This document shows, in pieces, positions 8,470-25,280 of a stretch of DNA of 32,000 bases; position 1 is the first letter of the stretch; each line of letters starts with the position of its first letter. Position numbers and translations under genes: made by a program. The stretch is from Candidatus Nanoarchaeia archaeon (GTDB lineage: Archaea; Nanobdellota; Nanobdellia; Woesearchaeales; JANQNC01): NCBI GenBank assembly GCA_028279745.1, contig JANQNC010000001.1:30001-62000 (forward strand), in the 5' to 3' direction. Under the pieces are notes generated by a model that saw only the letters and a list, made by a program, of their open reading frames with translations, ran no database searches and was not told where the DNA came from.

Positions 8470-8562
8470 TCTGGTGCTCCCAACACCATCCCCTCATAAA
8501 GGTGTTAATGAGAATTCATTTATAAATGTTTCGAAAGTTATCACTCAGAAGTAATTATATTA

Positions 8563-9126: not shown

Positions 9127-9260
9127 GCTATCAGTATAAGGAGTTATAGTGGAGTTATATATAAATATTATCGAAATAACTACTTTAGAGTGCTAAAAAC
9201 AGGTTCTGGGGCAATTTAAAAGGGTTTTGAGGTGTTTGAGATATATGAAAAATAGAAACC

Positions 9261-9290
9261 TTTATAAATGGAGAAAGGTGTTTATTTAAA
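9261..9290 (+). promoter_or_regulatory. candidate TATA boxes for the large operon
   Basis: TTTATAAA (9261-9268) and TTTATTTAAA (9281-9290) lie in the 258-nt divergent intergenic region. I cannot tell which one is used. Confidence 0.3.
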
Positions 9291-9311
9291 ACAGGGTGAT
9301 AGAGGGTAAAA

Positions 9312-9324
9312 GCTAGTAACTAGC
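9312..9324. promoter_or_regulatory. perfect palindrome GCTAGT-A-ACTAGC (candidate operator)
   Basis: 6-bp arms with a 1-nt spacer, ~25-30 nt downstream of the 9281 TATA-like box. This is near a predicted TSS and 60 nt upstream of the ATG at 9385. Confidence 0.3.
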
Positions 9325-9384
9325 AGTTATTCTCATTAAAGAGGGGGATAGAAAATTAATTACATTAAGCTTAAATCACTGTTT

Positions 9385-12300
9385 ATGATATTTCTGATAG
9401 TGACAATTCCGTTCTATGTTGCAGACGTAATGGCTCTGCCAGAAGATAACTATAATTATCCAGGACATCAGATAACAAAAGTTTGGCTCTATGGAAACGA
9501 TGAAATCAATGGTGCATTAAGAGAATCGTCAGAGACGATAAAAGTAAGAGTAGAGATTAATGTAGCAGACGTTTTACCACACCAAGTTTTATTTAACAAT
9601 GTAGAACAGTTTAACAATTGCTCAACACAATTTGGATTAAGTTACTGTACATATGAAGCACCGCACCCAAGCGTGATAGGTGTACAACCGTTTTCAGTGA
9701 GGTACAGTTCAGACATCGTAACAGGAAACTATTACATAGATAATACTGCACCGGCAGTCAATAATATTGCAGCAACACCTGATAGTGTGGGAGTGGGAAA
9801 TGTAACATTAAGCTATCAAGCACATGACTACTACCTATCAACAGATTTCTCAGGATGTTCAGGAATAAGTGAGTTACAGATAATAGAAGAAGGAACACTA
9901 AGGGAGACAATAAATGTCAACACAACAGACTGTGTTGTTACAGACACAATGGCTTATGATCCTGTGGGGATTACAGGTGAAAGAAGAAATTCAACAATCT
10001 GCATGAAAGCAATAGATAACTTCGGACAAGAATCTGAAGATAGTTGTATTGAAGTTTTAGTCGATAATGCACTACCACAAATATCTGCACCTTACATAAT
10101 ACAAAACAACGTAAAAGTAGATTTCTTACAATCAGGACTACAAACATTCGACATAGCAGTTAACGACACATACGGAGATATAAACTTGATAACGATGAGT
10201 TCTATCTCATTAGACAAAGTAAACGAGACAGCAAGCTGCATCAACGGAGTTTGCAAATGGAGCTCAATAATCTATAACGTGGATAATGCAACAACAGCAT
10301 TTGATGCACAGTTTTACATAAATGATGTTTATGGAAACTCAGACGTTGTGACTACAACAATACCTGTTGTAAAAGACGACTTAGCACCGGTGATAGAATC
10401 AGTGGCATCAACATACACAGCAGAAGGGGTAAACTATTTCGGAATAAAAGATAACACAGTAATAGCAACAATAACCGAAGGAGGGTCAGGATTAAACCCA
10501 CTAAATGTTAAGGCAGACTTTGCGCCTGTAGGGGGGAGATTAGAGACTGCAGATAATTGTACAGTATCAGGATCAATAAACTACTGTGGTTGGTATGACA
10601 TAGACACAACAATAGAAGGAACATTTGGGGTTACATTTACAGCAGTAGACAATGTAGGAAATGTGGCAGTATCAAAAACAGAATCAATCGTAGTTGATAG
10701 AACCCCTCCAAGCACAGACTCATACTTTATAGGAGCAGATGGAGCACCATCAGCGCCAGAAGATAATGAAAGCTTAACAAACGCAAAAGGATTACAACTA
10801 AGTATAACATCACAAGCAGGATATGAATTCTACCAAGTAGGAGATGATTTAGAAATCTCATTTATACTGTCTGATACAGAATCTGGGATAAGTGATGTAG
10901 ACTCTAGTGTGAATCTGTCAGGCATAACCCTTGAAGGAGTTGCTTATCCGACATGCACACTGATCAGCGAAGAAGTCTACGGTGTTTATGATTGTGTGTT
11001 TACAGCAAGACAAATCTTAGGACCAAAAATTGGAGCAAAACTAAGATTCAACATATGCGACAATGCAGGAAACTGCATACCTTACATAGAAGAGATAGAC
11101 ATAAGAGAATCAGAAGCAGGAGTTGCGGATTTCTGGAGAATAGTTGTTGAAGGAAACATGCCAAACGAGATAGACAGGCAAACAACAGCACTAGTACAGC
11201 AAAGAATGTACTTCAATCTGGCACTAAGATCAAAATCATCAGGTTCAATAGAACCAATCTTTATGGAAATTACAGACTGTGGGCCACAGGCAGCACAAGC
11301 ATTCTTAGCAGATACACCATCCTTACTTGGGTACACAAGAGGAAGCACAGAGGCATGGATGAAACTAACATTAGCACAACAAAGCATAGAAGTTGATAAT
11401 CTAACATTTGAATGCAGAGCAAGCATAGTTACAAAACACGGACAAAAAATATCACAACCAGAAATTGAAGTGTTTAACGTAACTGTACCATTGTACAACA
11501 TGCCACTAGGTGAGATATCAGACAATGTACAAGAAAAAATAGACGAAGTGCAGAATGGTTGGCTAGTACAGGGAGAATGGATAGGATCATTTAATAACTT
11601 AATGCAAAGGATGAAACAGACGTGTGCGTTGATAAGCACACTATCAACAGCAGTAACAGCATATAACTCATTCGCACTTGCGTTTGGGTGGACAAGATTC
11701 ACAGGAATACTACTGCCAATACAGAAAGCGATAGAAGGCACATCAGACGCACTAACATTTGCATTTACGGGAATAGTTAAACTTGTACAGTACACTTGTG
11801 TTGTGGGTAGCTGTCAGATAATCCCAAAAATAGTTGAGCAGTTGGGATTAAAAAATACAAACGAACTGGTACAAAAAATTATTTTGACATTAATAGCGCC
11901 GAATTCAAAAGGTTCAGCACTAACCGCGATACCTGGAATGGGACAGATAAACCAACAAGACAGTCTATGGTTAAGTGTTTTCACACTATGTCTACCAGGA
12001 ATCATTTACAACTTACAGAAAGCAAGAAACATAGAATGTAAATACATACAGTGTCTAAGAGATGAAGTGCCGCAAGGTAAACCAGTCTTTATCTGTGACT
12101 CGATGAGAGGATACGAATGGTGTACATATGTAACACACCCATTCTTAGAACTAATACCATTCAAAGCATTAGCAAGCCAACTTTACCATCTGGTAGAGGA
12201 TCTGTTCAAGAATCCATTATCTTTAGGATTGGGCTTGGCTGCATTGGCGTGCTGGGCAATACCTAACTTTGAAACTAAAAAAGGGTGCCACATAACTGCA

Positions 12301-12432
12301 GGAGTACAAGCAACAATCAGCGTAGCTTACTATATCTACAACTTCAAAGACCAATGGGAGTTAGATGCAGATTATTGTGAATTGGTGTTGAATGAAACAG
12401 AAGAAGAGGATGAAGAGGAGGAAGAAGAATAA
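9385..12432 (+). CDS. giant cell-surface protein: Ig-like repeats + hydrophobic Cys-rich C-terminal region + poly-Glu tail (1015 aa)
   Basis: Hydrophobic N-terminus MIFLIVTIPFYVADVMA|LPEDN. Four or more ~105-aa repeats, many N-x-S/T sequons, hydrophobic C-terminal segments, the C-x2-GI-x2-NL-x12-CL-x12-C-x8-C module and the tail ETEEEDEEEEEE. The start is uncertain: the GAGGGGG SD-like element sits 37 nt upstream of the ATG. Confidence 0.8.
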   Translation: MIFLIVTIPFYVADVMALPEDNYNYPGHQITKVWLYGNDEINGALRESSETIKVRVEINVADVLPHQVLFNNVEQFNNCSTQFGLSYCTYEAPHPSVIGVQPFSVRYSSDIVTGNYYIDNTAPAVNNIAATPDSVGVGNVTLSYQAHDYYLSTDFSGCSGISELQIIEEGTLRETINVNTTDCVVTDTMAYDPVGITGERRNSTICMKAIDNFGQESEDSCIEVLVDNALPQISAPYIIQNNVKVDFLQSGLQTFDIAVNDTYGDINLITMSSISLDKVNETASCINGVCKWSSIIYNVDNATTAFDAQFYINDVYGNSDVVTTTIPVVKDDLAPVIESVASTYTAEGVNYFGIKDNTVIATITEGGSGLNPLNVKADFAPVGGRLETADNCTVSGSINYCGWYDIDTTIEGTFGVTFTAVDNVGNVAVSKTESIVVDRTPPSTDSYFIGADGAPSAPEDNESLTNAKGLQLSITSQAGYEFYQVGDDLEISFILSDTESGISDVDSSVNLSGITLEGVAYPTCTLISEEVYGVYDCVFTARQILGPKIGAKLRFNICDNAGNCIPYIEEIDIRESEAGVADFWRIVVEGNMPNEIDRQTTALVQQRMYFNLALRSKSSGSIEPIFMEITDCGPQAAQAFLADTPSLLGYTRGSTEAWMKLTLAQQSIEVDNLTFECRASIVTKHGQKISQPEIEVFNVTVPLYNMPLGEISDNVQEKIDEVQNGWLVQGEWIGSFNNLMQRMKQTCALISTLSTAVTAYNSFALAFGWTRFTGILLPIQKAIEGTSDALTFAFTGIVKLVQYTCVVGSCQIIPKIVEQLGLKNTNELVQKIILTLIAPNSKGSALTAIPGMGQINQQDSLWLSVFTLCLPGIIYNLQKARNIECKYIQCLRDEVPQGKPVFICDSMRGYEWCTYVTHPFLELIPFKALASQLYHLVEDLFKNPLSLGLGLAALACWAIPNFETKKGCHITAGVQATISVAYYIYNFKDQWELDADYCELVLNETEEEDEEEEEE
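9739..10710 (+). repeat. tandem Ig-like domain repeats (protein-level, ~105-aa period)
   Basis: Boundary motif D-x-[TAL]-[AP]-P at aa 119 (DNTAP), 227 (DNALP), 331 (DDLAP) and 438 (DRTPP). Each is preceded by [AI].DN.GN-type strands (AIDNFGQ, INDVYGN, AVDNVGN), with a further ICDNAGN at aa 557. Confidence 0.65.
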
Positions 12433-13100
12433 TGGCATATCAACAATATCCTCAACAACAACCTCAACCACAAAGAGGGATGCAACAATACTACAGACCA
12501 CAGTACACGCCTCAACCACAAGCACCGCCACAAGGAACACATAAACATACGTTGTTAGTTGCAATGGCAGTCTTACTTGTTGTTGTGTTAGTAGCATTAG
12601 TTTTTGTCTATGTAAATGTGGATGGAACTGAACAAGGAACAACAGAAGAAGTAACATACCCTTATTCAACAGGCGAACTTTCACCAGATGAATTAGTGGA
12701 ACCAGAATTTAAGATAAACAACTTCAAATTCGCATCATTAGTTGATGACAATTTAAACTATCAAGAAACACCTGCAACATTCAACCGAGGAGATAAGTTT
12801 TGGGTGTACTTTGAGATAAACAATCTGGCCTCAGGAGACATGAGAGGAAAATACAGAACAAGCTATGATGAATATATTGCAGTAAATGATCCAAACGGAA
12901 ATCCAGTAACTGACTTAACCGGATTTTTAGGAACAACAACAGAAAATGCTGAAGAGGGGAAGTTCTATAGTTTCCCAGTTGCACACCAGTTACCAACATC
13001 TGTTGATTATGTTCCAGGAAAATATGATCTGACAATCTTCATAGACGATGCAATAAATGAGGAAAGCGCAGCAATATCAGCAAGCTTCATACTAAAATGA
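12432..13100 (+). CDS. single-pass membrane protein: Q/P/Y-rich N-terminal tail, TM, extracellular beta domain (222 aa)
   Basis: aa 3-35 YQQYPQQQPQPQRGMQQYYRPQYTPQPQAPPQG. TM LLVAMAVLLVVVLVALVFVYV (aa 41-61) has basic residues before it and acidic residues after it (N-in). The start overlaps the upstream stop (TAATG). Confidence 0.75.
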   Translation: MAYQQYPQQQPQPQRGMQQYYRPQYTPQPQAPPQGTHKHTLLVAMAVLLVVVLVALVFVYVNVDGTEQGTTEEVTYPYSTGELSPDELVEPEFKINNFKFASLVDDNLNYQETPATFNRGDKFWVYFEINNLASGDMRGKYRTSYDEYIAVNDPNGNPVTDLTGFLGTTTENAEEGKFYSFPVAHQLPTSVDYVPGKYDLTIFIDDAINEESAAISASFILK

Positions 13101-15829
13101 AAAAGATAATCTTACTAACATTGATGGTTTTAGTAGTTGTGAGTAGTGCAATGGCATTACAAACAAAACCAGTATCTATCTCTGACGGTCAAGACACATA
13201 CAGATATGTTTATGTGAGAGACGACCCAATAGGTGCAGATGGATGGTACTTAATAGGTAAAGATAATTCGGTTAGTCCGGTAAGTGAAATAGCTGAAGAT
13301 CTAGGGGGGCATGATGATTTAGTGTCTTCTTTAGTTGACAAGAACTTTGAAGATGGAGTAATACAAATCCAAAGAAATAATCCTGGAGTTGTAATGTATA
13401 ATGATAGATTAGTTGATAATAACGCAATTGCAGCAGTACTTTGGGGAAAAGACAATCAACCAGCATCAATAAGAAGCATAACGGGAACAGGAGATACAAG
13501 AACCGCAACATCAAAAAGTTCAACAGTACAACAATCAACAATAGCTTATAATGAAGCAAATGAAAGAGGTACGTTTACAGTAACAACCGGCAGGGGGAAT
13601 GTTTACACTTATGAAGAAGATCCAAACAATAAAGGAATCTACAGATGTGCCTTTAAAGGTACGGGTGCACCTTGTGGAACTTACAAACTAAATAATAATA
13701 ACCAGTTTGAGTGTGTTGGAGGAGATTGTAGAACTGGCTCATTGAGCACCTTTAACACAGTACAAGGAGTAGATAATGCATTTGCATACGCTAAATCACA
13801 ATCAGACACAATAGTAACACAACCTGAAGAACCTGCAACAGAACCAAATTTAGATGGAGAACCTGCGGAACCTTCTACGCCATCTTCACAATCACCAACA
13901 TCATTTAACGATCCAAGAATTGAGATAAAAACTGCGGGAAACACAACATCTGTCAACATGTATTATGTAAATGCAAGAACTGGATCATTAGAAAGAGCAA
14001 AACTAGCAGGAGACTTTGAAGGATACACTATGTCAAAAGAAGTCTTTGACAAACTAGGTGTAGGAGAAGACATATCTTACGATCAGTTAGCAAACTTACT
14101 GTCAGATCCAAACATAGACATACAAAACCTAAAACCATCACAGATAACAACAGATGCATCAGGAAACATACAAATATCGAAGTTTGATGACCAAGGAAAG
14201 CCTGCAGGAACTGTAGATGTGAATGTTAATAATGGAGCTTATACCATAAAAAGCACAACCACCGAAGATGGAAAACAAGTTGAAAGAACAGTACAATACA
14301 GAACAGATGGACTAATAGAGCATGGAGGAGACATAGTAGCAGGCAATGGTAAAGCTTACACAAGAACAGGACAGTTAGCATTATACAATGATTTGGCAAT
14401 ACCTCCTGGAGGGTATGATCAAACAACACAGAACAGAATTAATGATCTAACTTCAACAGCAAATTCACTAACGTCGACAATAGACAACACGAATAAAGAG
14501 ATAGAAAATCTTGCTAAGGCAAGTGCAGATATACAACAACAGATTGCAGCTTTAGCAAATGCGCCGGGAGCTGCTGAACAGGAACAAAGGCAACAGTTAC
14601 AAAAAGATTTAGAAGATAACAAAGCAAAACAAGACGAACTAAACAAAAAGAATGACAAAGATAAAGCAGATCTTAAGAAAGCACAACAAGATCTAACACA
14701 AACACAAGAAAACGGAAAAGTAACAAGACCTATAGATCTAAGGAAGGTAAACGTAAGCAACATATTCTCAACAGGCACACAATCAGGACTTTGGGCAGCA
14801 GATGATTATTGTGAAAAGCAAGGACTGACAGGAGGATCATTAGATAATTGTATAGCAAACATAAACGACAACTACCTAAGACAGGAAGGAGGAACATTCT
14901 TCACAGGAGAGTTTGGAAGAAGTTTCAGAAGAGATCACCCAAGCCTAACAAGAGGCATAATACTAACAAGAGCTATAACCGACAAGCTAAGTGCTGGTGC
15001 GTCAGCGATGCAGGCTGGAGCAACAGCAGGAGCAAAACTGTGGAGCTTCTTCCCAGGAACAGATGAGGAGCCGTTGTGGGATGTAGGAGATACAGAATTT
15101 GGGCAATTTGCACAAAGATATCTAGATAACGATAACATAAGAGCAGAAGCATGCAGGCACTGGCTAAACCAAGGGTCAGGAGAGATTGGAGTTGTGGATC
15201 CAAGCAGACCGCACCTAAGAGGAGACATATTATTCCTAGATGATAACAGGGATACAATAGGTGCATACGTTGTAGCTGAAAGAAGCTCATTTATAGATGT
15301 GCCGGGAGAAAGAAGAAACCAGACAAAACAATACTTCTACAAAATAAACTATAAGATAAGCGCAATAAAAGGAAAGATAGAATACAATATCAACTTATGC
15401 AGCGGAGATGCAGAGGATTGTAAAAAAGGAACAGGGGTAGTGGTTGAAGGATTATTCCCAGAAGAAGTCAAACTTAAGAAAGGCGAAACAGAGGATAGAA
15501 GCGGTGCACAAACACTTACAAAATACAGCGACAGAAGTTATGGGTCAGTTTGTGTTGCTGTAAGTAAAGGATTCAAAAATTTCAGATTTACAGATTCAGA
15601 TGAAGGAGCGTTCTGCGCAAACATAGCGGAGTCATCAGGAGGAATGCAAGCATACGAGTTCAAAGATCCAAGCGATGATCCAAACGGAGCAGGGGTGTGG
15701 CCGTTCTACGCTCCTGATGAGTATGAAGACTCAACAGCAGACGATGATGAAGATGACAGTGATGATGATAGCGGGAGTGATGACTCATCAGAAGAAGATA
15801 CAAGATATCAAGATCCAGGAAGCTGGTAA
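13097..15829 (+). CDS. large secreted protein with coiled-coil stalk and poly-acidic tail (910 aa)
   Basis: Sec signal MKKIILLTLMVLVVVSSAMA|LQT. P/E-rich linker (QPEEPATEPNLDGEPAEPSTPSS). Heptad-like Q/K/E/D/L-rich region at aa ~445-545. Cys-containing C-terminal domain and the tail DEYEDSTADDDEDDSDDDSGSDDSSEED. ATGA overlap with the upstream gene. Confidence 0.8.
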   Translation: MKKIILLTLMVLVVVSSAMALQTKPVSISDGQDTYRYVYVRDDPIGADGWYLIGKDNSVSPVSEIAEDLGGHDDLVSSLVDKNFEDGVIQIQRNNPGVVMYNDRLVDNNAIAAVLWGKDNQPASIRSITGTGDTRTATSKSSTVQQSTIAYNEANERGTFTVTTGRGNVYTYEEDPNNKGIYRCAFKGTGAPCGTYKLNNNNQFECVGGDCRTGSLSTFNTVQGVDNAFAYAKSQSDTIVTQPEEPATEPNLDGEPAEPSTPSSQSPTSFNDPRIEIKTAGNTTSVNMYYVNARTGSLERAKLAGDFEGYTMSKEVFDKLGVGEDISYDQLANLLSDPNIDIQNLKPSQITTDASGNIQISKFDDQGKPAGTVDVNVNNGAYTIKSTTTEDGKQVERTVQYRTDGLIEHGGDIVAGNGKAYTRTGQLALYNDLAIPPGGYDQTTQNRINDLTSTANSLTSTIDNTNKEIENLAKASADIQQQIAALANAPGAAEQEQRQQLQKDLEDNKAKQDELNKKNDKDKADLKKAQQDLTQTQENGKVTRPIDLRKVNVSNIFSTGTQSGLWAADDYCEKQGLTGGSLDNCIANINDNYLRQEGGTFFTGEFGRSFRRDHPSLTRGIILTRAITDKLSAGASAMQAGATAGAKLWSFFPGTDEEPLWDVGDTEFGQFAQRYLDNDNIRAEACRHWLNQGSGEIGVVDPSRPHLRGDILFLDDNRDTIGAYVVAERSSFIDVPGERRNQTKQYFYKINYKISAIKGKIEYNINLCSGDAEDCKKGTGVVVEGLFPEEVKLKKGETEDRSGAQTLTKYSDRSYGSVCVAVSKGFKNFRFTDSDEGAFCANIAESSGGMQAYEFKDPSDDPNGAGVWPFYAPDEYEDSTADDDEDDSDDDSGSDDSSEEDTRYQDPGSW
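14420..14720 (+). other. predicted coiled-coil segment
   Basis: TQNRINDLTSTANSLTSTIDNTNKEIENLAKASADIQQQIAALA...QRQQLQKDLEDNKAKQDELNKKNDKDKADLKKAQQDLTQTQE. Proline is absent apart from one central AP, and the region is charged and Gln-rich. Confidence 0.6.
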
Positions 15830-15844
15830 AAAAAGAGGTAAAAA

Positions 15845-18046
15845 ATGAAAGATAAGAGGGGGCAGATAACAGTATTTATTGTAATAGGAGTAATACTAGT
15901 ATTATCACTATCAGCGATGATATTCTTCAGATCACAATCAATAGAAGAAAAAGGAGAAGAAGAGGTTGCAAGAGCAGCACAAGAAATTCCTTACAACATG
16001 CAAAGAGTAAACCAGTTTGTAAAGAACTGTGCAGAAGATGTAGCTAAAGAAGGAATAAGAGCTATAGGTGCACACGGAGGATACATAGACCCATTAGATG
16101 CAGAGCTAAGCGGAACAATAATGAGAATAGGTGAAGCTCAAACAGAATCAGACGCACTGAAAATGGGTGAGTTAGTAGTGCCTTATTGGAATCACCTAAG
16201 ATCACCAAATGAGTGTATATCAAACTGCAACTTTGACTCAAAGATGCCAAACTTATACAAGTCTGAAGGAGAGCCAAGCATAGAAGGACAGATAGACAGA
16301 TATCTACAAAGAGAACTTCCAAACTGCATAGATAACTTTACAGAATTGAGAGAGTTAGGGTTTGAAGTATTATCAGAAGGGAACATAGAATCATCAACAC
16401 TATTTAGCATAGCAGATGCAAGCATAACATTACAATACCCATTACAAGTCGCAAAAGGAGACGAACGATACGACTTAAATGAGTTCACAGTAGATGTTCC
16501 AGTAAGTGTAAAACAAGTTTATGACCTTGCAAAAGAACTAACAAAGGTAGAACAAGAAGATAACTACCTAGAAAAACATACACTAAATACGATTGCAGCA
16601 TTCTCACAAGTTAACGCAGATAAATTACCGCCAATGGCATCAACAGATTTTGACTGTGACAAAAGAGTCACATGGGTGAGAAGCGATGTAGAGGAAAACA
16701 AACTAAAACCAGTATTACTAAGTCACACATCACTATTACAACCCTTCGGAGTAAGCAACTACAGAAGTTATGATGAAATAACAGACCCAACAACAAGAGG
16801 GATACTTACACAAGCACTAATACCATTTAACGGAAGCGTGTCAGCAGGCTTTGATGTTGACTTTGACTATTTAGGATGGCCAGTATACTTACAGATAACA
16901 CCAAACACAGGAGAGATAATAGAGCCGATGACTGCAGAAGCGTCAGTGTTCGACTTCTGCGTAAACCAATACAAATTTGCATACGATTTATCATATCCTG
17001 TACTGGTAACAATAAGAGATCCACTAGCATTTGCAGGAGAAGGATATAATTTTAATTTTGCTCTGGAAACAAACATAAGAGCAAACGAAATACTAACACA
17101 AAATTCAACAATACAAGAACTAAGACAAGAATTCAACTACTATGATGATGGATTCTTATGTAACACAAACCAAAGAACAAGTGGAAACGTAACTGTAATG
17201 ATAGACGACACAAGAACAGACCTTCCAGTAGAAGGAGTAAGAGTTAAGTTCTGCGTGCCTGATGGAGACGGAGCATGCGGATTTGACTCATGTTTTATGG
17301 GGTTGACAGGTGGAGATGGAAAATTAACAACTGAGTTCCCGTCAGCAGATGGAATAGTGTTGTTCACAAAAGAAGGATACTATGACTTTGCAGGTGCTTT
17401 AGCGACAAGACCTGGAGAAGAGACAAGCTATAATGCATCAATACATCCTATAAGAGAAAAAACAGTAGATGTACAGCTATTGTTGATGAAAGAAAAGTGT
17501 AATGAAGAGATGTCTTTTGTTAGTTCAAGCAATAAAGTTGCAGAAGTAGTGGATGTTGTAGAAGAAGAAGTGACATGCATGTGGGAATTCATGCCATCAC
17601 AAACAACAACATTGGGAGATGAGGATGAAGTGATAATAAACCTAGAGCGAGTAACGCCATCATACTCAACATTCCTTTCAACAGTAAGATTAGAAAAAGG
17701 ATCGGCAGAAACAGTAAAACTGATCCCAGGAGATTATAGTGTTAATGTTATGTATCTAAATGGAGACGGCATAAGCATTCCTGAAAGGGATTTAGATTGT
17801 GATGGTTGTGGTGGCTTAGATGCTATAGAGATAGACTCTATAGTGTTAGGGGGAGCAACTCTGAATAACGAAACGGGATATTGGACATTAACACAAGAAG
17901 AGCTAGACTCAGGAAATAACGTAGTGTTTAAAGCGATAGTCGCAGACGCAACACAGATAGACAAACACGAAGACTTGATAATCTCAGGATTAGTTGAGAA
18001 CACTTCAATGAAATTCACAGAACACATAATACCAGAAATAAGATAA
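15845..18046 (+). CDS. pilin-like (class III signal peptide) modular surface protein (733 aa)
   Basis: N-terminus MKDKRG|QITVFIVIGVILVLSLSAMIFF. It shares the head domain with ORFs 3990 and 18871. A prealbumin/CarboxypepD_reg-like sandwich lies around 17183-17401 (...DGKLTTEFPSADGIVLFTKEGYYD). AGAGGT SD lies 6 nt upstream. Confidence 0.8.
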   Translation: MKDKRGQITVFIVIGVILVLSLSAMIFFRSQSIEEKGEEEVARAAQEIPYNMQRVNQFVKNCAEDVAKEGIRAIGAHGGYIDPLDAELSGTIMRIGEAQTESDALKMGELVVPYWNHLRSPNECISNCNFDSKMPNLYKSEGEPSIEGQIDRYLQRELPNCIDNFTELRELGFEVLSEGNIESSTLFSIADASITLQYPLQVAKGDERYDLNEFTVDVPVSVKQVYDLAKELTKVEQEDNYLEKHTLNTIAAFSQVNADKLPPMASTDFDCDKRVTWVRSDVEENKLKPVLLSHTSLLQPFGVSNYRSYDEITDPTTRGILTQALIPFNGSVSAGFDVDFDYLGWPVYLQITPNTGEIIEPMTAEASVFDFCVNQYKFAYDLSYPVLVTIRDPLAFAGEGYNFNFALETNIRANEILTQNSTIQELRQEFNYYDDGFLCNTNQRTSGNVTVMIDDTRTDLPVEGVRVKFCVPDGDGACGFDSCFMGLTGGDGKLTTEFPSADGIVLFTKEGYYDFAGALATRPGEETSYNASIHPIREKTVDVQLLLMKEKCNEEMSFVSSSNKVAEVVDVVEEEVTCMWEFMPSQTTTLGDEDEVIINLERVTPSYSTFLSTVRLEKGSAETVKLIPGDYSVNVMYLNGDGISIPERDLDCDGCGGLDAIEIDSIVLGGATLNNETGYWTLTQEELDSGNNVVFKAIVADATQIDKHEDLIISGLVENTSMKFTEHIIPEIR

Positions 18047-18071
18047 CTGAACATAGGTGAGGGGTGGAAGA

Positions 18072-18881
18072 ATGGCTAAACAGAAGAAAAAGACAGAGAA
18101 AAAAGGCAAGTTTATAGACTACCTGGATGAAAATATAAAGCTAGCTTTAACCTCAATAAAAGAAAGACCAAAAAAATTAATTCTTCCCTCTGTGGTCGAT
18201 ATAATATTCTATGTGTTGATAGCAATTGTTTTCATTGCATTTGGAAGTTACTTAGTCTCAATATCAGCAGGATTTCCTCTGATGCAGCCAGAACTATTGC
18301 AACCAGAACAACTAGAGCCTTATGATGACATGTTCGCATCACTAATAGTAAAAGTGTTGGTATCAGTAAGCATATTGTTTATTGTTATCAATGCATTAAC
18401 CGCAGTAGCTAAAGGAACGATATGGCAGTATGTACTAAAGAAGAAATTAGAGGTAAAAGATTATTTTAAACTGGCAGGGCTAAATGCACTAATGCTTCTT
18501 TTATTTATCTTAGTAATACTTATGCTTCCAATAAAATTCATAGACCCAACAAGCAACGCATCGTTAATAGGGTATGCGGTGTTTGTTAACCTGATGACTT
18601 TGGTGTTATTACACTTTAGCATAATAGTATACTACAAATTTGTATCACTAAAAAAATTCTTCACAGCAATAAAAGAGGGATTCTTAGTCGGGATAAAAGT
18701 ACACAGATTTATCTTCCCATACTTACTCTCTATTGTAGTCTTATTTGTTTTGGGATTAGTGACTGTTCCGCTGCAATTACTGGGAGATGTTGTTAACCTA
18801 GTAGTATCAACTATTCTACTATTGATATTTATGGCATGGTTCAGGTTTTACATTGCAGAGGTGATAAAGCGTGTCAACTAA
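18072..18881 (+). CDS. polytopic membrane protein, ~6 TM helices (269 aa from ATG 18072)
   Basis: The ORF track starts at GTG 18057. ATG 18072 is better placed behind AGGTGAGGGGTGGA. Lys-rich N-terminus (MAKQKKKTEKKGK) followed by six ~20-aa hydrophobic segments. No family recognised. Confidence 0.7.
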   Translation: MAKQKKKTEKKGKFIDYLDENIKLALTSIKERPKKLILPSVVDIIFYVLIAIVFIAFGSYLVSISAGFPLMQPELLQPEQLEPYDDMFASLIVKVLVSVSILFIVINALTAVAKGTIWQYVLKKKLEVKDYFKLAGLNALMLLLFILVILMLPIKFIDPTSNASLIGYAVFVNLMTLVLLHFSIIVYYKFVSLKKFFTAIKEGFLVGIKVHRFIFPYLLSIVVLFVLGLVTVPLQLLGDVVNLVVSTILLLIFMAWFRFYIAEVIKRVN

Positions 18882-20721
18882 ATCACAAGTGACCCAATTC
18901 ATAGCAATGGGAATCATACTTGTGATAGCAGTAGCAATATTCTTATTCGTAAAAGACCAATTTGTGGGAGCAGAAGTAGTATCAACAGAGTTCGTGCCAG
19001 TAGCAGAATACGTAAAAGAATGCGCATCACAAACAACAGACGAAGCAGTAAGACTGTTGGGGTTACAAGGAGGCTATGTATACATGCCAGACTTCATCAG
19101 GTTTGACCCATTAAGCTACGTAAACAATGCAGGCGTAACACTGCCTTACTGGTATCATAAAGGAGAAAGCAGAGCTCCAACGTTAGAGCTGATGGAAAAT
19201 GACATATCAAGATATGTAAAAGAAAACATTGAAGGATGCACACTGGGCTTTGAAGGGTTTGAGGAAGAGTTTGAGATAGAACAAACAGGCGACATAGAAG
19301 TAGAAACGCACATAAGCGATGAAGAGATAGAAATAGAACTAGTGTACCCCTTATCTTTAAAGCTAAGAGGACAAGAACAAGTTGAAGAAATCACAAAAAT
19401 AAGAACAACAAACAACATAAGATTGGGAAAAATATACTCATTAGCAAAAGACATAATGGACACAGAAAATGAACAAACATTCTTAGAAAACAATACCCTG
19501 GACATGATCGCAGTAGCAGACTTACCTTATGAAGGGTTAGAGGTGGCTTGTGGAAAAGACTGGAGCGTACAAGGACAGATAAAACCACAAGTGCAAGAGA
19601 TGGTGAAATACAATTTCCACTACTTAAATTTCAAAAACACAAAATATGAACGATCAGGAATAGACTACTTCGAATCATTCTACGAACAAGAAGTAGGAAC
19701 ATCTAACTATAAAGACATAAGAGTAAAAACAATATATGACGAAGAGTACGGTATGGAGATAGACGTATATCCCTCACACGGAGACATAACAGAAGGAATC
19801 GACTTAGGGATGCCAGACGTAATACCTTGTCTAAATGTCTATCATCACTTTTACAACATAGAATATCCTGTAGTATTCCAACTAACAGACGAAAAGAATC
19901 CAGAAGACACATATAACTTCTTCTTTGCATCGCCAGTCATAATAGACAAAAACTCAGCAAGAAGATCAAAACCAATAGAAGTAGTAGATGACAGCTTCAA
20001 TACGATAACCTCAGACGATTATTGTGCAACAGCAGAATATGAGCTAACTGTATTTGCAGTAGATAAGTTGTCAGGACAAGAGCTAGCAGATGCAAAAGTT
20101 GAATATCAATGTGTTAACTTTAACTGTAAGATGGGCGTAACAGAACAACCAACATTTGACGGAATCCCAATCGCAAACTCACTACCAAAAGCAGTAGAAA
20201 GATTCCCAGGATGTGTTAACGGATTTATAATCACAACAAAAGAAGGATATCTAGATGGGGAGCTGCAAGAAACCGCAGACGAATCAACCCACGGAGGAAG
20301 CGTGGCAGTAGAGATGACCCCTTTAAGGGATCTAGGATATTCATTCGTGATAAAAGAAGGAGACTCAACAAGACTCCCAAGAGATAATGAAGTAATATAC
20401 ATGGTTATAGAAGACAAAGAGAACGATTACAGAACCGCAATATACTACCCAACAGACTTAGAACAGTTCAATAGATTAAGCTTACCGATAAGAGACGCAG
20501 TATATGATGTTGATGCAAGAATAATAGTTGATGAAACGGTGGTTGGAGGCTTAGAGATACTAGAATGGGAAGTTACACAAGCAGATGTAGAAAGAGCAAA
20601 CTTTTTAGGATTAACACTACTATCATCAGACCCACAACCGACAACAACAGAAGACTATGTGGAACTGTACAGAAATGTAATAATGACTGAGTCAGAGAAT
20701 TATGAACCAAGACTAGAATGA
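18871..20721 (+). CDS. pilin-like (class III signal peptide) modular surface protein (616 aa)
   Basis: A GTG start overlaps the 6-TM gene by 11 nt. N-terminus MSTKS|QVTQFIAMGIILVIAVAIFLFV. Full-length paralog of ORF 15845 (head domain plus a prealbumin-like sandwich at 20038-20271 with ITTKEGYLD). Confidence 0.8.
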   Translation: MSTKSQVTQFIAMGIILVIAVAIFLFVKDQFVGAEVVSTEFVPVAEYVKECASQTTDEAVRLLGLQGGYVYMPDFIRFDPLSYVNNAGVTLPYWYHKGESRAPTLELMENDISRYVKENIEGCTLGFEGFEEEFEIEQTGDIEVETHISDEEIEIELVYPLSLKLRGQEQVEEITKIRTTNNIRLGKIYSLAKDIMDTENEQTFLENNTLDMIAVADLPYEGLEVACGKDWSVQGQIKPQVQEMVKYNFHYLNFKNTKYERSGIDYFESFYEQEVGTSNYKDIRVKTIYDEEYGMEIDVYPSHGDITEGIDLGMPDVIPCLNVYHHFYNIEYPVVFQLTDEKNPEDTYNFFFASPVIIDKNSARRSKPIEVVDDSFNTITSDDYCATAEYELTVFAVDKLSGQELADAKVEYQCVNFNCKMGVTEQPTFDGIPIANSLPKAVERFPGCVNGFIITTKEGYLDGELQETADESTHGGSVAVEMTPLRDLGYSFVIKEGDSTRLPRDNEVIYMVIEDKENDYRTAIYYPTDLEQFNRLSLPIRDAVYDVDARIIVDETVVGGLEILEWEVTQADVERANFLGLTLLSSDPQPTTTEDYVELYRNVIMTESENYEPRLE

Positions 20722-23700
20722 AATCAGAATACCTAAAACAAATAATCGCGAACTTCATAATATTGATAATACTCTTCTTGCCGCATGCACAAGCATTGTC
20801 GATATCAAATGTTAATATAGATGAGATAACAAGCAATTCTGCAAGGATTACATGGAATACAGATAACGCAAGCAACAGTATCGTAAGATATGGAGACACA
20901 CAACAGATACTGGAGTCAGAAGAAAAAACAGAAAGTGTAGTTAATCATTCTGTGACCATCTCTGGATTGAGTAAGGACACAAAATATTATTACAGCGTAA
21001 GATCTGGAGAAATATTTGATAACAATGCAGGAAGCCTGTATACTTTCAGAACATCAGAAGAAGAAATTGTTTCTGAGGATGTTAGCGAAAATGTTAGTGT
21101 CAATGAAACAACAACAGACAATGTAACTTATGTATATGAGGGAACACCTGCAATATCACTAGAAACAATACCTGAATTTACAAGAGAAAGAGACTTCCTG
21201 ATAAAAGGAACAACAAATCCAAATGTTGTATTAAGGTTTTACATCAACGACCACAAAATACCCGAACAGATAGCAGGAACAGAAAGATTTAGCGTGAAAT
21301 CGGGGGTGGATGGCAAATTTAACGCAACAATAAGACTACTATCTGGGTTTTATAACAGCACTTTGGGTCTGAATATCATAAAAGTAGAAGCCACAACAGC
21401 AGATTACTTCAGAAATTATGCATACCAAACAATAGTATATGATGCAGTACCTCCAAGACTTACAGTTAACACAATACCTTTAACTTCAAACCAAGGAAGC
21501 ATAACTGTAAAAGGATCAACAAACGAGGCAACCAAGATAGAGATTGTTGTAAACAATGCAACGCAGTCAACAGTTGAAACAGGAGAAAATAATATCTTTG
21601 AAACAACAGCAACACTATCAACAGGAATAAACCAACTAGAAGTAATAGCAATAGACAAAGCAAACCATACTGCAGTACACAGACAGACAGTAACGCTAGA
21701 CAACACACCACCTTCAATCGTGTTTGAAGAACTTGACGAAACATACCATTTCACAATTGCCACAATAAAAGGAAACACCTCTGAAGGTAATGTAAAAATA
21801 AAAGTAACAAACACAGGATCAGCAAGAATAGATTATGGAGATCCTTCTGGAGTGAGTAGAGTAAGAGCCACATACAATACCACAAACGTAACGACAATAA
21901 GATACGGAAGACAAGAAAACGTAACGGTGGGAGCAGACATAGATGTGTTAGGAAGCATTATTGGATACGAGAAGGAGACAACTTCTGGTGAAAATGGAGC
22001 GTTTACAATAAGAGTTGGTTTAATCAACGGAACAAACAATTTACTCTTTGAGCTAGAAGATGCTGCGGGAAATAAAGCAATAGTGGAGCAAACTCTACAG
22101 ATGGAAGCATCTACGGGATTGTGGAAGATAGGAAGAATAACCACTTTACCAAATGAAGTTTACACAGATAATCTAGGGAATGGAAATGTAGATATTGGAT
22201 TGACGTATGACTTATTTTATCTAGGCTCACAAGCAGAAGATCTAAACTCATTAAGGATAGCAGCAACACTAGATGGAAGCAGATTGAATAATGAATTATT
22301 TAGAGTATCCGACAAACCATACGTATACTGGAACCCAGACCAAAACAAAGCTGTTGTGTACCAAGAGATACAGATGATAAAGTATACTGGCAATCCACAA
22401 GAACTGCCAGACCAAGCAGACTTTGGAATGCAAAACAGGATAACATACAGAATAGGAAGAGAAGCAGAATATGATGAAAAATTATTTTATGATTCAGGAG
22501 TATCCGTTGAGAAACCGCTGAAGTACAGCAGGTTCTTAACACCAGAAATGATCAATAAAAGCCTAGAAAGACTAAACAAAACAATAGCAATACTAGAAAA
22601 AGCATTAGAGATAGCAGAGATAGGAACATATGTATCATTAGGAGCATGTCTAGCGATGACAGTCTACACATATGTGGCAGGTGCAGGTGATAGTCCATTG
22701 CCAAGTGGAGGGCAATTAGAAAAACTATTCTTAGCATGTGATAGACTATTATGTCCAACGGTTCCACCAAAATGTACAGACACAACATTCTCAGATGATG
22801 AATACAAAGGAAATGGGGTGTATGAAAAACAACTTATGGAAGGGAATGAAGTTGTAGGCACAGTAGTTGTACAACACTCAGTCAATCAACCACAAGGATG
22901 TCCACAAGCACCACCAAACTACGCTTATGTAAAAGTAACCACGACAGGATCAGCAGATACACAACTATTTGGACAACAGTTCCCAGGAGCAAATAATAGT
23001 CCAAGCTGGTATCAAACAACACCAATAAGACTACAACAAGGAACAGTAACATCAATCAACAGCAACTGCTTCTATACAGATGTAAGGAATCAGTCAGCAT
23101 TTGAGCCACAACTAGCAAAAGCAGGATGCTACACGCCCGAAAACCCATTCTATGACAACACAAAATGTCTATGGAACTTCAAAAAAGGCAATAATCCAAC
23201 AATGACAGACCTAAATCCTTATGATGACATAATCACATCAGTAAGATGTGGATGTGTAACAGGAATAAGAGGAAATTTAGAAAACATAATAGGAATACTG
23301 GAAGGAATCAGAGGATGTTTACAACAAGCACAAATCGGAGAAGTCCGAGGAGGGTATTGTGAAAGATTAGTTGCACAATTCGCATGCGATTGGATATCTT
23401 GGTTGGTAAAACAAGTAGTCAATGCAGATTGGCAAGGAATAATAAAATCAAAAGCATCATCAGAATACATAGGAAACGTACAACAAAGAATAGGTGAAGT
23501 AAACAGTAATCTACAAGCAAGATATGGTGCAATAGCAGCAAGCAGAGTTGGATTATCAGCAGATCAGCTATTCAACAAAGCATGTATAGCTGCAATCACT
23601 GGTGATTGGACAGACTTACAGAACTTATTAAGAGAGTCAACAAGAATCCCAGTCAAACCAGTAATAGGACCAATGCTTCCAGAATCAAGAGTAACAGCAT

Positions 23701-25280
23701 ATAATCCATTCACAGGAACAATCTCAATTAATTATCTATTGACAATAGGTGTGATGTCGGGAGGACAAGAAGTTAGTGGAAAGGTAGAGATATGGTGCGA
23801 TCCAAACTACCCAACACCAGACGGAATGCCAGTAATGTGTCCTGACAGACGAATAAAGTTAGGAGATAGAGGAGTTTATGTGCCAAGAGATGGGGCAGTA
23901 TCAGAAAACTGGGCATACCAAACAGACGATATACCTTACTGGGGCAATGTAGCGATAATGACCCTTGACTACCAAGTTGGAGGAGAGCAGAAACATGAAG
24001 AAAAAGTAGAACCGATCGTAAGAAAAGGAGGGTTGATAGGACAGTGCCATTGGCAAATCTTCCCACCAGTAATCGTATGTGAATCAATAGTTCCAGGAGC
24101 AGAAGCATTACTAGAAGCAGAACAGATAAGAAAGTCACCAGACGTAAGAACATACTACCCTGGAAACGTGTTAGGGGTTAGGATAGATGCAAGAAGAGTT
24201 GGAGCTATCACTAATCGTACTAACGATCTAGAAAAAGTTGCAGTAGTCTATGAAATGACAATACCTGGAACAGGACAAGATGGACAGGCTCGAACTGTTG
24301 ATAATAAAAATAACTTAAATGCATACAAACCATTCGCATCACTAAAAGGAAAAGTTGACGATACGGTATTTGTATCATTACATGAGTTCCCATCAGAAGC
24401 ACAAGTACAGTATGAAACAAAACAAATACTTGCAAGAAGGATAGCATATCCTTCACGATTGATCGAGAAAGATGAAGAGATTATTGTAAGAGCGTTTACA
24501 ACAGGAACACAAACAACTGCACAAACGCCAAGAAATGTATTGAGAGTGTTGACTGATGGACTGAATGATAACAAGTGGACAGAAGATGGTGTGGCTCTAA
24601 GGTATAGAGCAGATGCAAATGTGACTTTAGGAAACATAACCCTTGTAGAGATAGAAGCAGATGCAGAACAGACCCAATCATTAACCATAGAGATAGAAGC
24701 GGATGGAGTTAGAACTCCTGTACAGGTAGGTTTTGCAGCAGGAGAATCAAAAACAGTTACAGAATATCCCGCAAGCTCAAATTATAAATTAGCGGTTACT
24801 TTATGGGAAGACACAGACAACAATAACGCAATAGATCCATCACAAGATAAACTAGTGTTGTACAGAGGATATAACCAATCAGAACGATTCACATTTGGAT
24901 TTAATCCAGAACCTGCATGCGGAATAACTCCTCGGGTTGAGATATTAAAACCTAGAAATGATGAACTATTCTGTAAAGGTGAGTTAGAACTTGCATACTG
25001 GGATGATTGTAACCAGATAGATCAGGTTGGGTTATTCTATGACAAAGCAAACGAGACAAATAAGATACAGTTGCCATCACCAGCAAGATCCGAAGCAGGC
25101 TACAGACAGTATTTAGATGTTGATCTATCAGGCTTAGGTTTTGAGAACAATCAAGAAGTAGAGTTAATTGTGAGAGTAGAGGATAATAGGAACAAAGTAG
25201 CAACTAATAAACAGACTATCAGCTTTAGCAGTAATAGATGTGTTAGTGCGGGTGGAAGTGTAGACACTAGTGAAGAATAA
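20718..25280 (+). CDS. giant cell-surface protein: FN3 + Ig-like repeats + Cys-rich core (1520 aa)
   Basis: Signal MKSEYLKQIIANFIILIILFLPHAQA|LS, an FN3 domain and three Ig-like repeats. It has the same [FL]W[RK]I...PNE region, helical/hydrophobic segment and Cys-spaced module as ORF 9385. Sequon-rich. ATGA overlap with the upstream gene. Confidence 0.85.
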   Translation: MKSEYLKQIIANFIILIILFLPHAQALSISNVNIDEITSNSARITWNTDNASNSIVRYGDTQQILESEEKTESVVNHSVTISGLSKDTKYYYSVRSGEIFDNNAGSLYTFRTSEEEIVSEDVSENVSVNETTTDNVTYVYEGTPAISLETIPEFTRERDFLIKGTTNPNVVLRFYINDHKIPEQIAGTERFSVKSGVDGKFNATIRLLSGFYNSTLGLNIIKVEATTADYFRNYAYQTIVYDAVPPRLTVNTIPLTSNQGSITVKGSTNEATKIEIVVNNATQSTVETGENNIFETTATLSTGINQLEVIAIDKANHTAVHRQTVTLDNTPPSIVFEELDETYHFTIATIKGNTSEGNVKIKVTNTGSARIDYGDPSGVSRVRATYNTTNVTTIRYGRQENVTVGADIDVLGSIIGYEKETTSGENGAFTIRVGLINGTNNLLFELEDAAGNKAIVEQTLQMEASTGLWKIGRITTLPNEVYTDNLGNGNVDIGLTYDLFYLGSQAEDLNSLRIAATLDGSRLNNELFRVSDKPYVYWNPDQNKAVVYQEIQMIKYTGNPQELPDQADFGMQNRITYRIGREAEYDEKLFYDSGVSVEKPLKYSRFLTPEMINKSLERLNKTIAILEKALEIAEIGTYVSLGACLAMTVYTYVAGAGDSPLPSGGQLEKLFLACDRLLCPTVPPKCTDTTFSDDEYKGNGVYEKQLMEGNEVVGTVVVQHSVNQPQGCPQAPPNYAYVKVTTTGSADTQLFGQQFPGANNSPSWYQTTPIRLQQGTVTSINSNCFYTDVRNQSAFEPQLAKAGCYTPENPFYDNTKCLWNFKKGNNPTMTDLNPYDDIITSVRCGCVTGIRGNLENIIGILEGIRGCLQQAQIGEVRGGYCERLVAQFACDWISWLVKQVVNADWQGIIKSKASSEYIGNVQQRIGEVNSNLQARYGAIAASRVGLSADQLFNKACIAAITGDWTDLQNLLRESTRIPVKPVIGPMLPESRVTAYNPFTGTISINYLLTIGVMSGGQEVSGKVEIWCDPNYPTPDGMPVMCPDRRIKLGDRGVYVPRDGAVSENWAYQTDDIPYWGNVAIMTLDYQVGGEQKHEEKVEPIVRKGGLIGQCHWQIFPPVIVCESIVPGAEALLEAEQIRKSPDVRTYYPGNVLGVRIDARRVGAITNRTNDLEKVAVVYEMTIPGTGQDGQARTVDNKNNLNAYKPFASLKGKVDDTVFVSLHEFPSEAQVQYETKQILARRIAYPSRLIEKDEEIIVRAFTTGTQTTAQTPRNVLRVLTDGLNDNKWTEDGVALRYRADANVTLGNITLVEIEADAEQTQSLTIEIEADGVRTPVQVGFAAGESKTVTEYPASSNYKLAVTLWEDTDNNNAIDPSQDKLVLYRGYNQSERFTFGFNPEPACGITPRVEILKPRNDELFCKGELELAYWDDCNQIDQVGLFYDKANETNKIQLPSPARSEAGYRQYLDVDLSGLGFENNQEVELIVRVEDNRNKVATNKQTISFSSNRCVSAGGSVDTSEE
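20799..21053 (+). other. fibronectin type III-like domain
   Basis: ISNVNIDEITSNSARITWNTDNASNSIVRYG...HSVTISGLSKDTKYYYSVRS...YTFRT is the classic FN3 pattern (ITW.T, V.YG, H.V.L.GL...T.YYY.V.S). Confidence 0.8.
21144..22097 (+). repeat. three tandem Ig-like repeats (protein-level)
   Basis: The repeat starts align: TPAISLETIPEFTRERDFLIKGTTNPNVVLRFYIN / PPRLTVNTIPLTSNQGSITVKGSTNEATKIEIVVN / PPSIVFEELDETYHFTIATIKGNTSEGNVKIKVTN. D..PP boundaries at aa 242 and 328. Confidence 0.65.

Follow-up and report, generated by a model that had tools for sequence, protein, structure and literature searches.

A 32,000-nucleotide stretch of DNA from a small-genome, Woesearchaeota-type DPANN archaeon (contig JANQNC010000001.1, forward-strand positions 30,001 to 62,000; referred to here as the window, and numbered from its first letter) carries seven + strand open reading frames (ORFs), g1 to g7, at 9385-25280. 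This ~16-kb operon is proposed to encode a membrane-anchored multi-protein surface complex, most likely one for contact with a partner or host cell, a reading of the sequences that is held with moderate confidence. All seven families recur in Woesearchaeota and Nanoarchaeota metagenome-assembled genomes (MAGs) as one collinear block, and some relatives carry peptidoglycan-hydrolase domains on two of the subunits. As a kind of system it is familiar, falling among surface adhesion or envelope complexes and class III-signal proteins; its families, their pairing and the seven-gene architecture are new, and literature searches found no description of the cluster.

An earlier note on this DNA had described the seven ORFs as one tightly coupled unit, and the ORF listing and junction sequences bear it out, down to the individual junctions. 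The gene for g1 (9385-12432, 1015 aa, or probably 9355-12432, as discussed below) meets that for g2 (12432-13100, 222 aa) at a TAATG (12430-12434). ATGA overlaps join g2 to g3 (13097-15829, 910 aa) at 13097-13100 and g6 (18871-20721, 616 aa, with a GTG start) to g7 (20718-25280, 1520 aa) at 20718-20721. A short spacer 5' of g4 (15845-18046, 733 aa), AAAAAGAGGTAAAAA, contains AGAGGT. Counted from its GTG, g5 (18057-18881) has 274 aa; its probable start is ATG 18072, behind AGGTGAGGGGTGGA, giving 269 aa. The g5/g6 junction is an 11-nt overlap (18871-18881) with GAGGTGAT upstream.

Conservation was followed through g4, for which a word-indexed set of 5.8 billion proteins yields 47 homologs, all from Woesearchaeota or Nanoarchaeota, and a one-genome-per-species set 238 encoded relatives (searched with alignment A2, g4 and its close homologs). 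From these 238, 80 loci were kept, nearly all labelled Woesearchaeota or Nanoarchaeota. Groundwater sites (the 'NC_groundwater' and Rifle datasets) are the source of many MAGs. ORFs were called in 82 fetched loci with 10-kb flanks and searched iteratively with the window proteins. The majority gene order is g4, g1, a small transmembrane protein, g3, g5, g6, g7. The g1 family is present in 75 of the 82 loci, g3 in 34 and g5 in 36. Where at least 9 kb downstream of g4 is available (36 loci), g1 is found in 34, g3 and g5 in 24 each, g6 in 22 and g7 in 13 (the last number being limited by the 10-kb flank). In every locus with at least three of the families (27/27) the order is collinear, at pairwise identities of only ~25-30%; whether homologs in related genomes would be syntenic or scattered was a check set beforehand, and they are syntenic.

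The window itself departs from the majority order in placing g1-g2-g3 ahead of g4. Its exact order is common to its closest relatives, loci L083 (an RNase_H gene on the opposite strand, then g1, g2), L084 (g2, g3, g4) and L085 (g5, g6, g7), and is a lineage-specific permutation. Retention of the set through this rearrangement implies that the set itself, not just its order, is under selection. In the majority arrangement a giant gene comes directly after each pilin-like gene. A g4-type gene is followed by a g1-type gene in 73 gene pairs, and g6 by g7 in 14, with a median 4-nt overlap and with 12 of the 14 no more than 20 nt apart; loci L006, L029 and L053 have extra pairs of the g4-g1 type. 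The g4/g1 and g6/g7 families, adjacent in most genomes, form two paralogous modules, each of a pilin-like protein and a giant. A viral or mobile origin was considered and rejected: there are no PHROG matches, and no relatives among 2.9 million viral contigs.

Some genomes (L053, L057, L067, L069, L041, L003) have a second, partial copy upstream of the canonical system, of the form g1-x-g4'-g5, for example; some g4' proteins of these copies are longer than g4, at 788-1001 aa, and in L053, L067 and L069 the canonical block is without g5. Directly upstream of g4 in 47 loci (at 9834-10004 of L001, and in 46 others) is a gene for a 57-aa protein, MSIQIRITVSKEINDLLERVSKKLGKKKSMLARELMEQKMYDLELIQ..., that the window lacks. 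The protein is highly conserved, at 80-91% identity, among genomes in which g4 is only ~30% identical to that of the window and, on our own reading of its sequence pattern, looks like a ribbon-helix-helix regulator; a PDB profile search with it gave nothing. Beside the cluster in 45 loci (8402-9637, - strand, of L001, and 44 others), and absent from the window, is a divergently transcribed gene for a ~406-aa membrane protein consisting of a cytoplasmic N-domain, one transmembrane segment, a β-sandwich and a Cys-rich repeat region, with no Pfam family. Contigs bearing the cluster are often titled 'uncultured Methanosarcinales archaeon' (L003, L011, L012, L018, L019 and others, from co-assembly/binchicken MAGs), and L076 is titled 'Candidatus Binatia bacterium'. 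These titles are probably placeholders or belong to mis-binned contigs; in some, such as L019, the flanking genes are like those of Woesearchaeota-labelled contigs.

Class III-like proteins and their putative giant partners

The g4 protein consists of a class III-like N-terminus, MKDKRGQITVFIVIG, an α/β head at ~aa 50-420 and three β-sandwich domains. The earlier note had proposed that g6 shares the head, and the two proteins are paralogs (BLASTP E 2e-21); the N-terminus of g6 is MSTKSQVTQFIAMG, with Ser at -1 (KSQVTQ), and its ortholog in L085 is 55% identical. A third, shorter paralog, u430 (3990-5282, + strand; MKRGQITVFIVLG), lies outside the coordinates of that note. It matches g4 by BLASTP (4e-13), shares a BLAST cluster with g4 and g6, and in jackhmmer searches converges on the g4 family; Ig matches to its C-terminal, immunoglobulin (Ig)-like region are weak.

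N-termini were compared with a class III pattern (FlaFind) of basic residues, [KRDE][GA][ALIFQMVED][ILMVTAS]x3 and a hydrophobic helix, reportedly as set out by Szabo et al. 2007. Across 112 members of the family the N-terminus reads [KR][GAS]-Q-x-[TSA]-[ILV]-F, with Q at +1 and F at +5, and then continues as a hydrophobic helix. The strict FlaFind-type pattern is matched by 76 of the 112, among them g4 and u430 (both KRGQITV); the remaining third or so, including g6, have Ser at -1. Of the two class III-type N-termini claimed for the operon, that of g4 accordingly fits the motif and that of g6 is among those with Ser at -1. Q7, T9, F11 and G15 are at least 90% conserved in the family, and this N-terminal conservation exceeds what a plain membrane anchor would seem to need. 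Large archaeal surface proteins that are not pilins can also use a class III signal. The known archaeal class III proteins (Epd pilins and minor pilins of Methanococcus, sugar-binding proteins of the Sulfolobus bindosome) resemble g4 and g6 in their short basic N-terminus, [KR][GA]-Q junction and hydrophobic helix of ~20 residues, but g4 and g6 are 616-733 aa long, have a novel 370-residue head, three β-sandwiches and a flexible linker, and lack E at +5, and their operon encodes no ATPase, platform protein or peptidase. No prepilin peptidase family matches any ORF of the window.

An AlphaFold2 model of g4 (32-sequence alignment; mean predicted local distance difference test score, pLDDT, 85) has an N-terminal helix at residues 4-44 in which confidence drops from about residue 31 and falls below 50 at 36-42, a poorly conserved linker. 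There follow a confident α/β head of ~370 residues and three transthyretin/CnaB-like sandwiches. Foldseek comparison with the PDB aligns the β-sandwich part only (with the SlaB stalk, CnaB pilins and transthyretin-like domains, at query TM-scores of at most 0.15); the head has no match. Type IV pilins are absent from these matches, and the model does not show the pilin fold, in which a continuous α1 helix packs on a β-sheet. No PDB profile or Pfam family matches g4. Judged by this model, g4 and g6 are proteins with a class III-like signal, not demonstrable pilins. The resemblance to the sortase-assembled CnaB pilins of Gram-positive bacteria is at the level of fold only and confined to the C-terminal sandwiches of g4 (query TM-scores 0.10-0.15); the proteins considered here have no C-terminal hydrophobic sorting segment, and the organism is an archaeon (it encodes LonB). 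The cluster thus adds a large family with class III-like signals and a novel, confidently modelled head domain.

The putative giant partner of g4, g1, opens with a signal peptide, continues with Ig-like (Big_3-type) repeats and is closed by a Cys-rich helical region at the C-terminal end and a tail of poly-Glu; it contains 27 Cys and has a net charge of -73. Big_3_3 is found in 12 of 42 family members, and the acidic C-terminal tail, present in only 10 of the 42, is not a conserved feature. The putative partner of g6, g7, has a signal peptide, an N-terminal array of FN3/Ig domains, a conserved core and a C-terminal β-sandwich array. Pfam matches are to Pur_ac_phosph_N/fn3, Glucodextran_B and Big_13 in g7 and, weakly, to Big domains in g1. 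Word-indexed homology searching gave only one or two true relatives for either giant, and the families were rebuilt from the loci and by exhaustive search of 1.84 billion cluster representatives, 251 of which match the g7 core at E<=1e-3.

The two giants look unrelated by BLASTP; their family profiles align collinearly with 92% probability. They have in common a Cys-rich helical module at aa 851-929 of g1 (11935-12171, + strand) and aa 829-906 of g7 (23202-23435, + strand), for which hhalign of deep profiles gives 98.3% probability and E 2.1e-14, in agreement with the earlier note's proposal of a Cys-spaced module common to the 1015- and 1520-aa proteins. The g1-family consensus of the module is ClPGIIYNLxKYRQIxCxYADCL...ACEDQKxYxTCKYV; in g7 it falls within the most conserved stretch of the family (~aa 800-1160). 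Invariant Cys columns number 13 in the g7 family and are many in the g1 family. An AlphaFold2 model of the g7 core (40-sequence alignment, pLDDT 76, predicted TM-score (pTM) 0.69; model residue 1 is g7 residue 461) places in order a β-sandwich, a 48-residue helix, a Cys-rich helical bundle containing the module in common with g1 (here a helical hairpin at pLDDT ~80), a low-confidence hairpin region and, at model residues 529-1043, the β-sandwich array.

Foldseek comparison of this model with the PDB and BFVD returns strings of Ig, MG and FN3 domains only (TM-scores of at most 0.25, and at most 0.14 when normalised to the query). PDB profile searches give weak N-terminal Ig/FN3 matches for g7 (E >= 7e-4) and nothing for the g1 core. 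Whether the giants could be placed in a characterised S-layer or pilus family had been set beforehand as a refuting test; neither profiles nor Foldseek gave a confident match of that kind.

Remaining subunits, export and the start of g1

The bitopic g2 has a Q/P-rich cytoplasmic tail, a transmembrane segment at 41-59 and an ectodomain of ~160 aa; g5 is polytopic, with six hydrophobic segments and a net charge of +14. These topologies, and the presence of an export or anchor signal on every product, agree with the descriptions in the earlier note. Orthologs of g2 are found in L083 (70% identity) and L084 (44%), most loci having no detectable homolog. It matches nothing in Pfam or NCBIfam, and its suspected homology to the small transmembrane proteins of other loci, or to the divergent 406-aa membrane protein, was rejected, since only transmembrane segments aligned. 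The g5 family has no Pfam match among 30 members.

In g3, a signal peptide and a variable N-terminal part precede a coiled coil (~aa 440-545); then come a conserved C-terminal domain (~aa 640-860) and a disordered, acidic tail with Trp as its last residue. Library matches of g3 are weak SMC/coiled-coil hits at the level of noise, PDB profile search with its core finds nothing, and relatedness to g1 or g7 was tested with a negative result. Tails of the g3 family are of low complexity, rich in S, T, Q, G and D, and end in D-F, D-W or, in the window, S-W (...INDF, ...SDDW, ...DPGSW; window 15770-15829); judging by this pattern, the C-terminal end may be a conserved docking motif.

A hydropathy scan finds a single N-terminal hydrophobic segment in each of g1, g3, g4, g6 and g7, and a C-terminal transmembrane segment in none of the seven products. 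The exported products are strongly acidic, with net charges between -50 and -73, and contain many conserved Cys residues; g1 and g7 also show a mild excess of N-glycosylation sequons (z 1.3-2.0). That the recognisable folds would be generic adhesion folds only, and that the conserved cores would fall into no family, also stands: Pfam, NCBIfam and Foldseek give Ig, FN3 and transthyretin-like domains, no Pfam, NCBIfam, PHROG or PDB family matches the cores, and library scans of 30-42 members per family add only further Ig-type domains and the SLT domain considered below.

Translation of g1 probably begins 30 nt upstream of 9385, at a conserved ATT (9355) behind a Shine-Dalgarno (SD) sequence, GAGGGGGA, which would make it a protein of 1025 aa. 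An in-frame peptide upstream of the first g1 ATG, INY/F-K..SLF[ML]IFLIVT[IL]PFY (INY-IKLKSLF-MIFLIVTIPFY in the window), is kept with synonymous changes in the L083 ortholog. L083 offers no ATG, GTG or TTG at the position of the ATT, nor any ahead of the Met of the signal-peptide cleavage region, and in both genomes an SD, GAGGGGGA or AGGTGAGGG, lies directly 5' of the ATT (window 9355-9387; L083 1856-1888). With the start at 9355, the n-region of g1 would be of the ordinary basic type and agree with the family consensus. The intergenic segment upstream (9127-9354, + strand) contains A/T-rich, TATA-like boxes (TATATAAATATT, TTTATAAAT) and the SD, and is likely to be the promoter and leader of the operon; L083 shares its ATATATAAA block and can be aligned with it around the SD and start. 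Runs of T6 are absent from the operon against 1.5 expected, which is not significant (p about 0.2).

Proposed host contact, cell-wall enzymes and alternative readings

No enzyme family of Pfam or NCBIfam matches any of the seven products, and the window yields no SLT domain (murein lytic transglycosylase, PF01464), whether by Pfam or when all six frames, g3 and g7 included, are searched with a local profile of the domain. The earlier note's statement that the operon encodes no enzyme accordingly holds for this genome's copy; it fails for relatives, in which g3- and g7-family proteins carry SLT or VanY domains. Four proteins in the g3 slot, all of which match the g3 family profile, have an SLT domain (L018, 1706 aa; L052, 1171 aa; L046, 2143 aa; L021, 1808 aa), with scores of 68-95 bits against a cut-off of 21.3. 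Among 23 g7-family members scanned, SLT is found in two and VanY in one (P0190, P0136 and P0179 are g7-type members with SLT or VanY matches), and a local SLT profile finds the domain in 4 of 149 g7-type representatives, C-terminal to the conserved core. Stand-alone secreted SLT proteins are encoded beside the cluster in L001, L023, L042 and L072.

These domains in the g3 and g7 families of other Woesearchaeota provide independent support for a role in host contact, and from them it may be inferred that the complex contacts bacterial cells in at least some lineages. Specialised lytic transglycosylases are a component of bacterial envelope-spanning machines (VirB1 of type IV secretion, enzymes of the FlgJ/EtgA type), where, as here, the SLT domain is on or beside a multi-protein surface machine; the analogy suggests local opening of peptidoglycan. 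It differs in that the producing cell itself lacks peptidoglycan, so that the substrate would be another organism's wall, and in that the domain is fused to structural subunits, in some lineages only. Large extracellular SLT proteins specific to Woesearchaeota and Pacearchaeota (fam00969) have been described by Castelle et al. 2021 (PMC8204110), who placed them in a co-occurrence module of 51 families, mostly unknown ('Module 98'), proposed that they mediate attachment to bacterial walls, and raised the idea of a bacterial partner from the SLT proteins alone. Some g3- and g7-family members are exactly such proteins, of the same lineage, secreted, 1,171-2,406 aa long and with SLT, and the other families of the cluster are plausible candidate members of the 51-family module. 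That paper gives a family and a module, but no gene cluster, pairing, class III-like subunits or architecture, and the g3 and g7 of the window are without SLT.

A mechanism can be sketched in conditional terms. Of the seven products, g1, g3 and g7 would be exported by way of Sec; g4 and g6 would become inserted in the membrane and perhaps be processed by a peptidase of the prepilin type with [KR][GAS]-Q as its recognition site, and their hydrophobic helices, together with g2 and g5, would hold the giants at the surface as g4-g1 and g6-g7 pairs, with the Ig/FN3 arrays pointing outward to bind another cell. In several lineages, g3- and g7-type subunits have gained lytic transglycosylase or D,D-carboxypeptidase domains, implying that the structure reaches bacterial peptidoglycan; with no hydrolase of its own, the complex of the window would act as an adhesin or scaffold. 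A more far-reaching version can be formulated, which we regard as a minority prospect: a new archaeal host-contact organelle built from two heterodimeric modules (each a class III-anchored head-and-stalk protein with a giant Cys-core protein), organised by the six-transmembrane and coiled-coil proteins and without a dedicated ATPase, by which Woesearchaeales dock onto bacteria and with which the lineages armed with SLT or VanY breach walls. If true, this would be a device for cross-domain episymbiosis or predation with no homolog among known pili, S-layers and secretion systems.

Several considerations weigh against host contact as the function of the complex. Both complex formation and pairing are read from gene adjacency alone. 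The class III signal of g4 and g6 is a motif match, with no prepilin peptidase gene in the window. Hydrolase domains occur in a minority of proteins (~4 of 40 in the g3 slot, 3-5 of 150 of the g7 type) and not in the window, so that the target could differ between lineages. A constitutive envelope layer would account just as well for order-wide conservation next to housekeeping genes.

Such a layer, an S-layer or constitutive coat of Woesearchaeales with g1 and g7 as canopy or lattice and g4, g6, g2 and g5 as membrane-anchored stalks, on the analogy of SlaA/SlaB, is improbable in our estimate, while overlapping in part with the host-contact and filament readings, as these do with each other. 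A single-locus set conserved across the lineage, often beside the methionyl-tRNA synthetase (MetRS) gene or other housekeeping genes, would suit it, as would an operon without ATPase or enzyme and giants that are acidic, built of Ig arrays and mildly enriched in sequons. The best PDB match of g4 is the S-layer stalk SlaB (8qox_B, E 3e-6), and the g7 core matches Haloferax csg (7ptp) and SbsB (4aq1) among generic Ig arrays; these are, on the other hand, generic β-sandwich matches with TM-scores of at most 0.18. In the Sulfolobales, too, a large secreted canopy-type protein is encoded beside a membrane-anchored β-sandwich stalk, but the g4-SlaB TM-score is 0.12 normalised to the query and 0.18 to the target (generic sandwiches only), there is no sequence homology, and the anchor is N-terminal here and C-terminal there. 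Known S-layers are encoded by one or two genes, in contrast to the seven families and two paralogous pairs of this cluster. Pfam and NCBIfam searches place none of the products in an S-layer family, PDB profile searches being empty except for the weak generic Ig/FN3 matches (E >= 7e-4). Extra partial copies of the cluster, and the small, highly conserved gene upstream of g4, possibly for a regulator and so suggestive of regulated expression, sit poorly with a constitutive coat. So does the recurrent fusion of peptidoglycan hydrolases to the subunits of these families; we know of no report of such a fusion in archaeal S-layer proteins.

It is somewhat more doubtful still that the operon encodes an accessory or tip-adhesin module of a type IV filament (TFF), with g4 and g6 as large minor-pilin-like subunits cut by the prepilin peptidase, the ATPase and platform encoded elsewhere, and the filament presenting g1 and g7. 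The strongly conserved [KR][GAS]Q-x-[TSA]-[ILV]-F and the fit of 76/112 members to the FlaFind-type pattern speak for it, as does a full TFF locus 3-9 kb upstream of the cluster, on the opposite strand, in L037, L044, L051, L059 and L063. This locus encodes a T2SSE ATPase, two T2SSF platform proteins and two canonical pilins (KKAQAAMEFLMTYGW) with the same [KR][GA]-Q junction as g4; between it and the cluster are genes for a 652-aa protein, a 236-aa protein and MetRS. Large adhesin-like proteins have, moreover, been reported from several archaeal TFF loci (2026 preprint, 10.64898/2026.04.22.720090). Adjacency to TFF genes is, however, confined to one subclade and may represent a single event; neither the window nor, within 10 kb, the other 77 of the 82 loci has an ATPase, platform protein, peptidase or small pilin. 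In the g4 model the transmembrane helix runs into a low-confidence linker rather than continuing as a pilin α1-C on a β-sheet, no pilin fold is matched, and about a third of the family, g6 included, has Ser at -1.

The least ambitious proposal, that independent adhesins and membrane proteins are merely neighbours with no common apparatus, is very improbable. Each giant, being provided with a separate signal peptide, could act by itself, and in most loci no homolog can be detected of u697 (a secreted protein encoded upstream; see below) or of g2. Set against this are the collinearity of 27/27 loci at ~25-30% pairwise identity, start/stop codon overlaps here and in relatives, and persistence of the same set through a lineage-specific permutation.

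Other DPANN archaea have giant surface proteins as well, such as the SPEARE proteins of Nanohaloarchaeum antarcticus: these too are very large, secreted and rich in adhesion domains, come from episymbiotic small-genome archaea and are proposed to contact the host. Each SPEARE protein is, however, described as one multi-domain giant that includes protease and nuclease domains, in place of a conserved seven-gene set. Woesearchaeales are among the most widespread DPANN archaea; we know of no cultured representative, nor of any account of their hosts or attachment machinery. The cluster, which is conserved lineage-wide and takes up ~1.2% of a 1.3-Mb contig, provides a tangible candidate for such machinery, with defined subunits, pairings and motifs to model, label or seek in metaproteomes. 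That domains which cut peptidoglycan have been added repeatedly to two of its subunits is genomic evidence on the long-standing question whether some Woesearchaeota live on bacteria rather than archaea.

Flanking genes and a probable inserted block

Upstream of the operon, u430 is ATGA-coupled to u697 (5279-7372, + strand, 697 aa), which encodes a secreted, very acidic protein. No relationship of u697 to the g1, g3 or g7 families could be detected, and the related loci contain no homolog of it; with u430 it may make up a third pair of pilin-like and secreted protein, and the system probably extends to 3990-7372. In L083 an RNase_H_2 gene directly precedes g1 and block 3990-9126 is absent, which makes this block look like an insertion relative to L083. 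Also within it are u366 (7369-8469, - strand) and u187 (8563-9126, - strand), both with N-terminal signal-like sequences and without homologs in the 82 related loci; a relationship of either to the 406-aa family was tested and rejected.

The wider flanks encode MetRS (432-2582), a rubrerythrin-like protein, an RNase-H-like protein, a tetratricopeptide repeat (TPR) protein and an archaeal LonB (29338-31221). MetRS is near the cluster in the window; in one subclade (L028, L031, L037, L044, L056, L059, L063, L079) its gene is immediately upstream of g4 and is preceded by that of a conserved 236-aa protein. Six closer relatives of MetRS from metagenomes (45-61% identity) have neither cluster nor TFF genes nearby, confining the linkage to the subclade. 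Of the segment 27989-29337, ~640 nt are without an ORF of at least 80 aa, and no tRNA or Rfam match was found there; this is the lowest-GC stretch of the window (0.31), and its only ORFs are two short, overlapping ones on the - strand (110 and 108 aa) with a weak OB-fold match.

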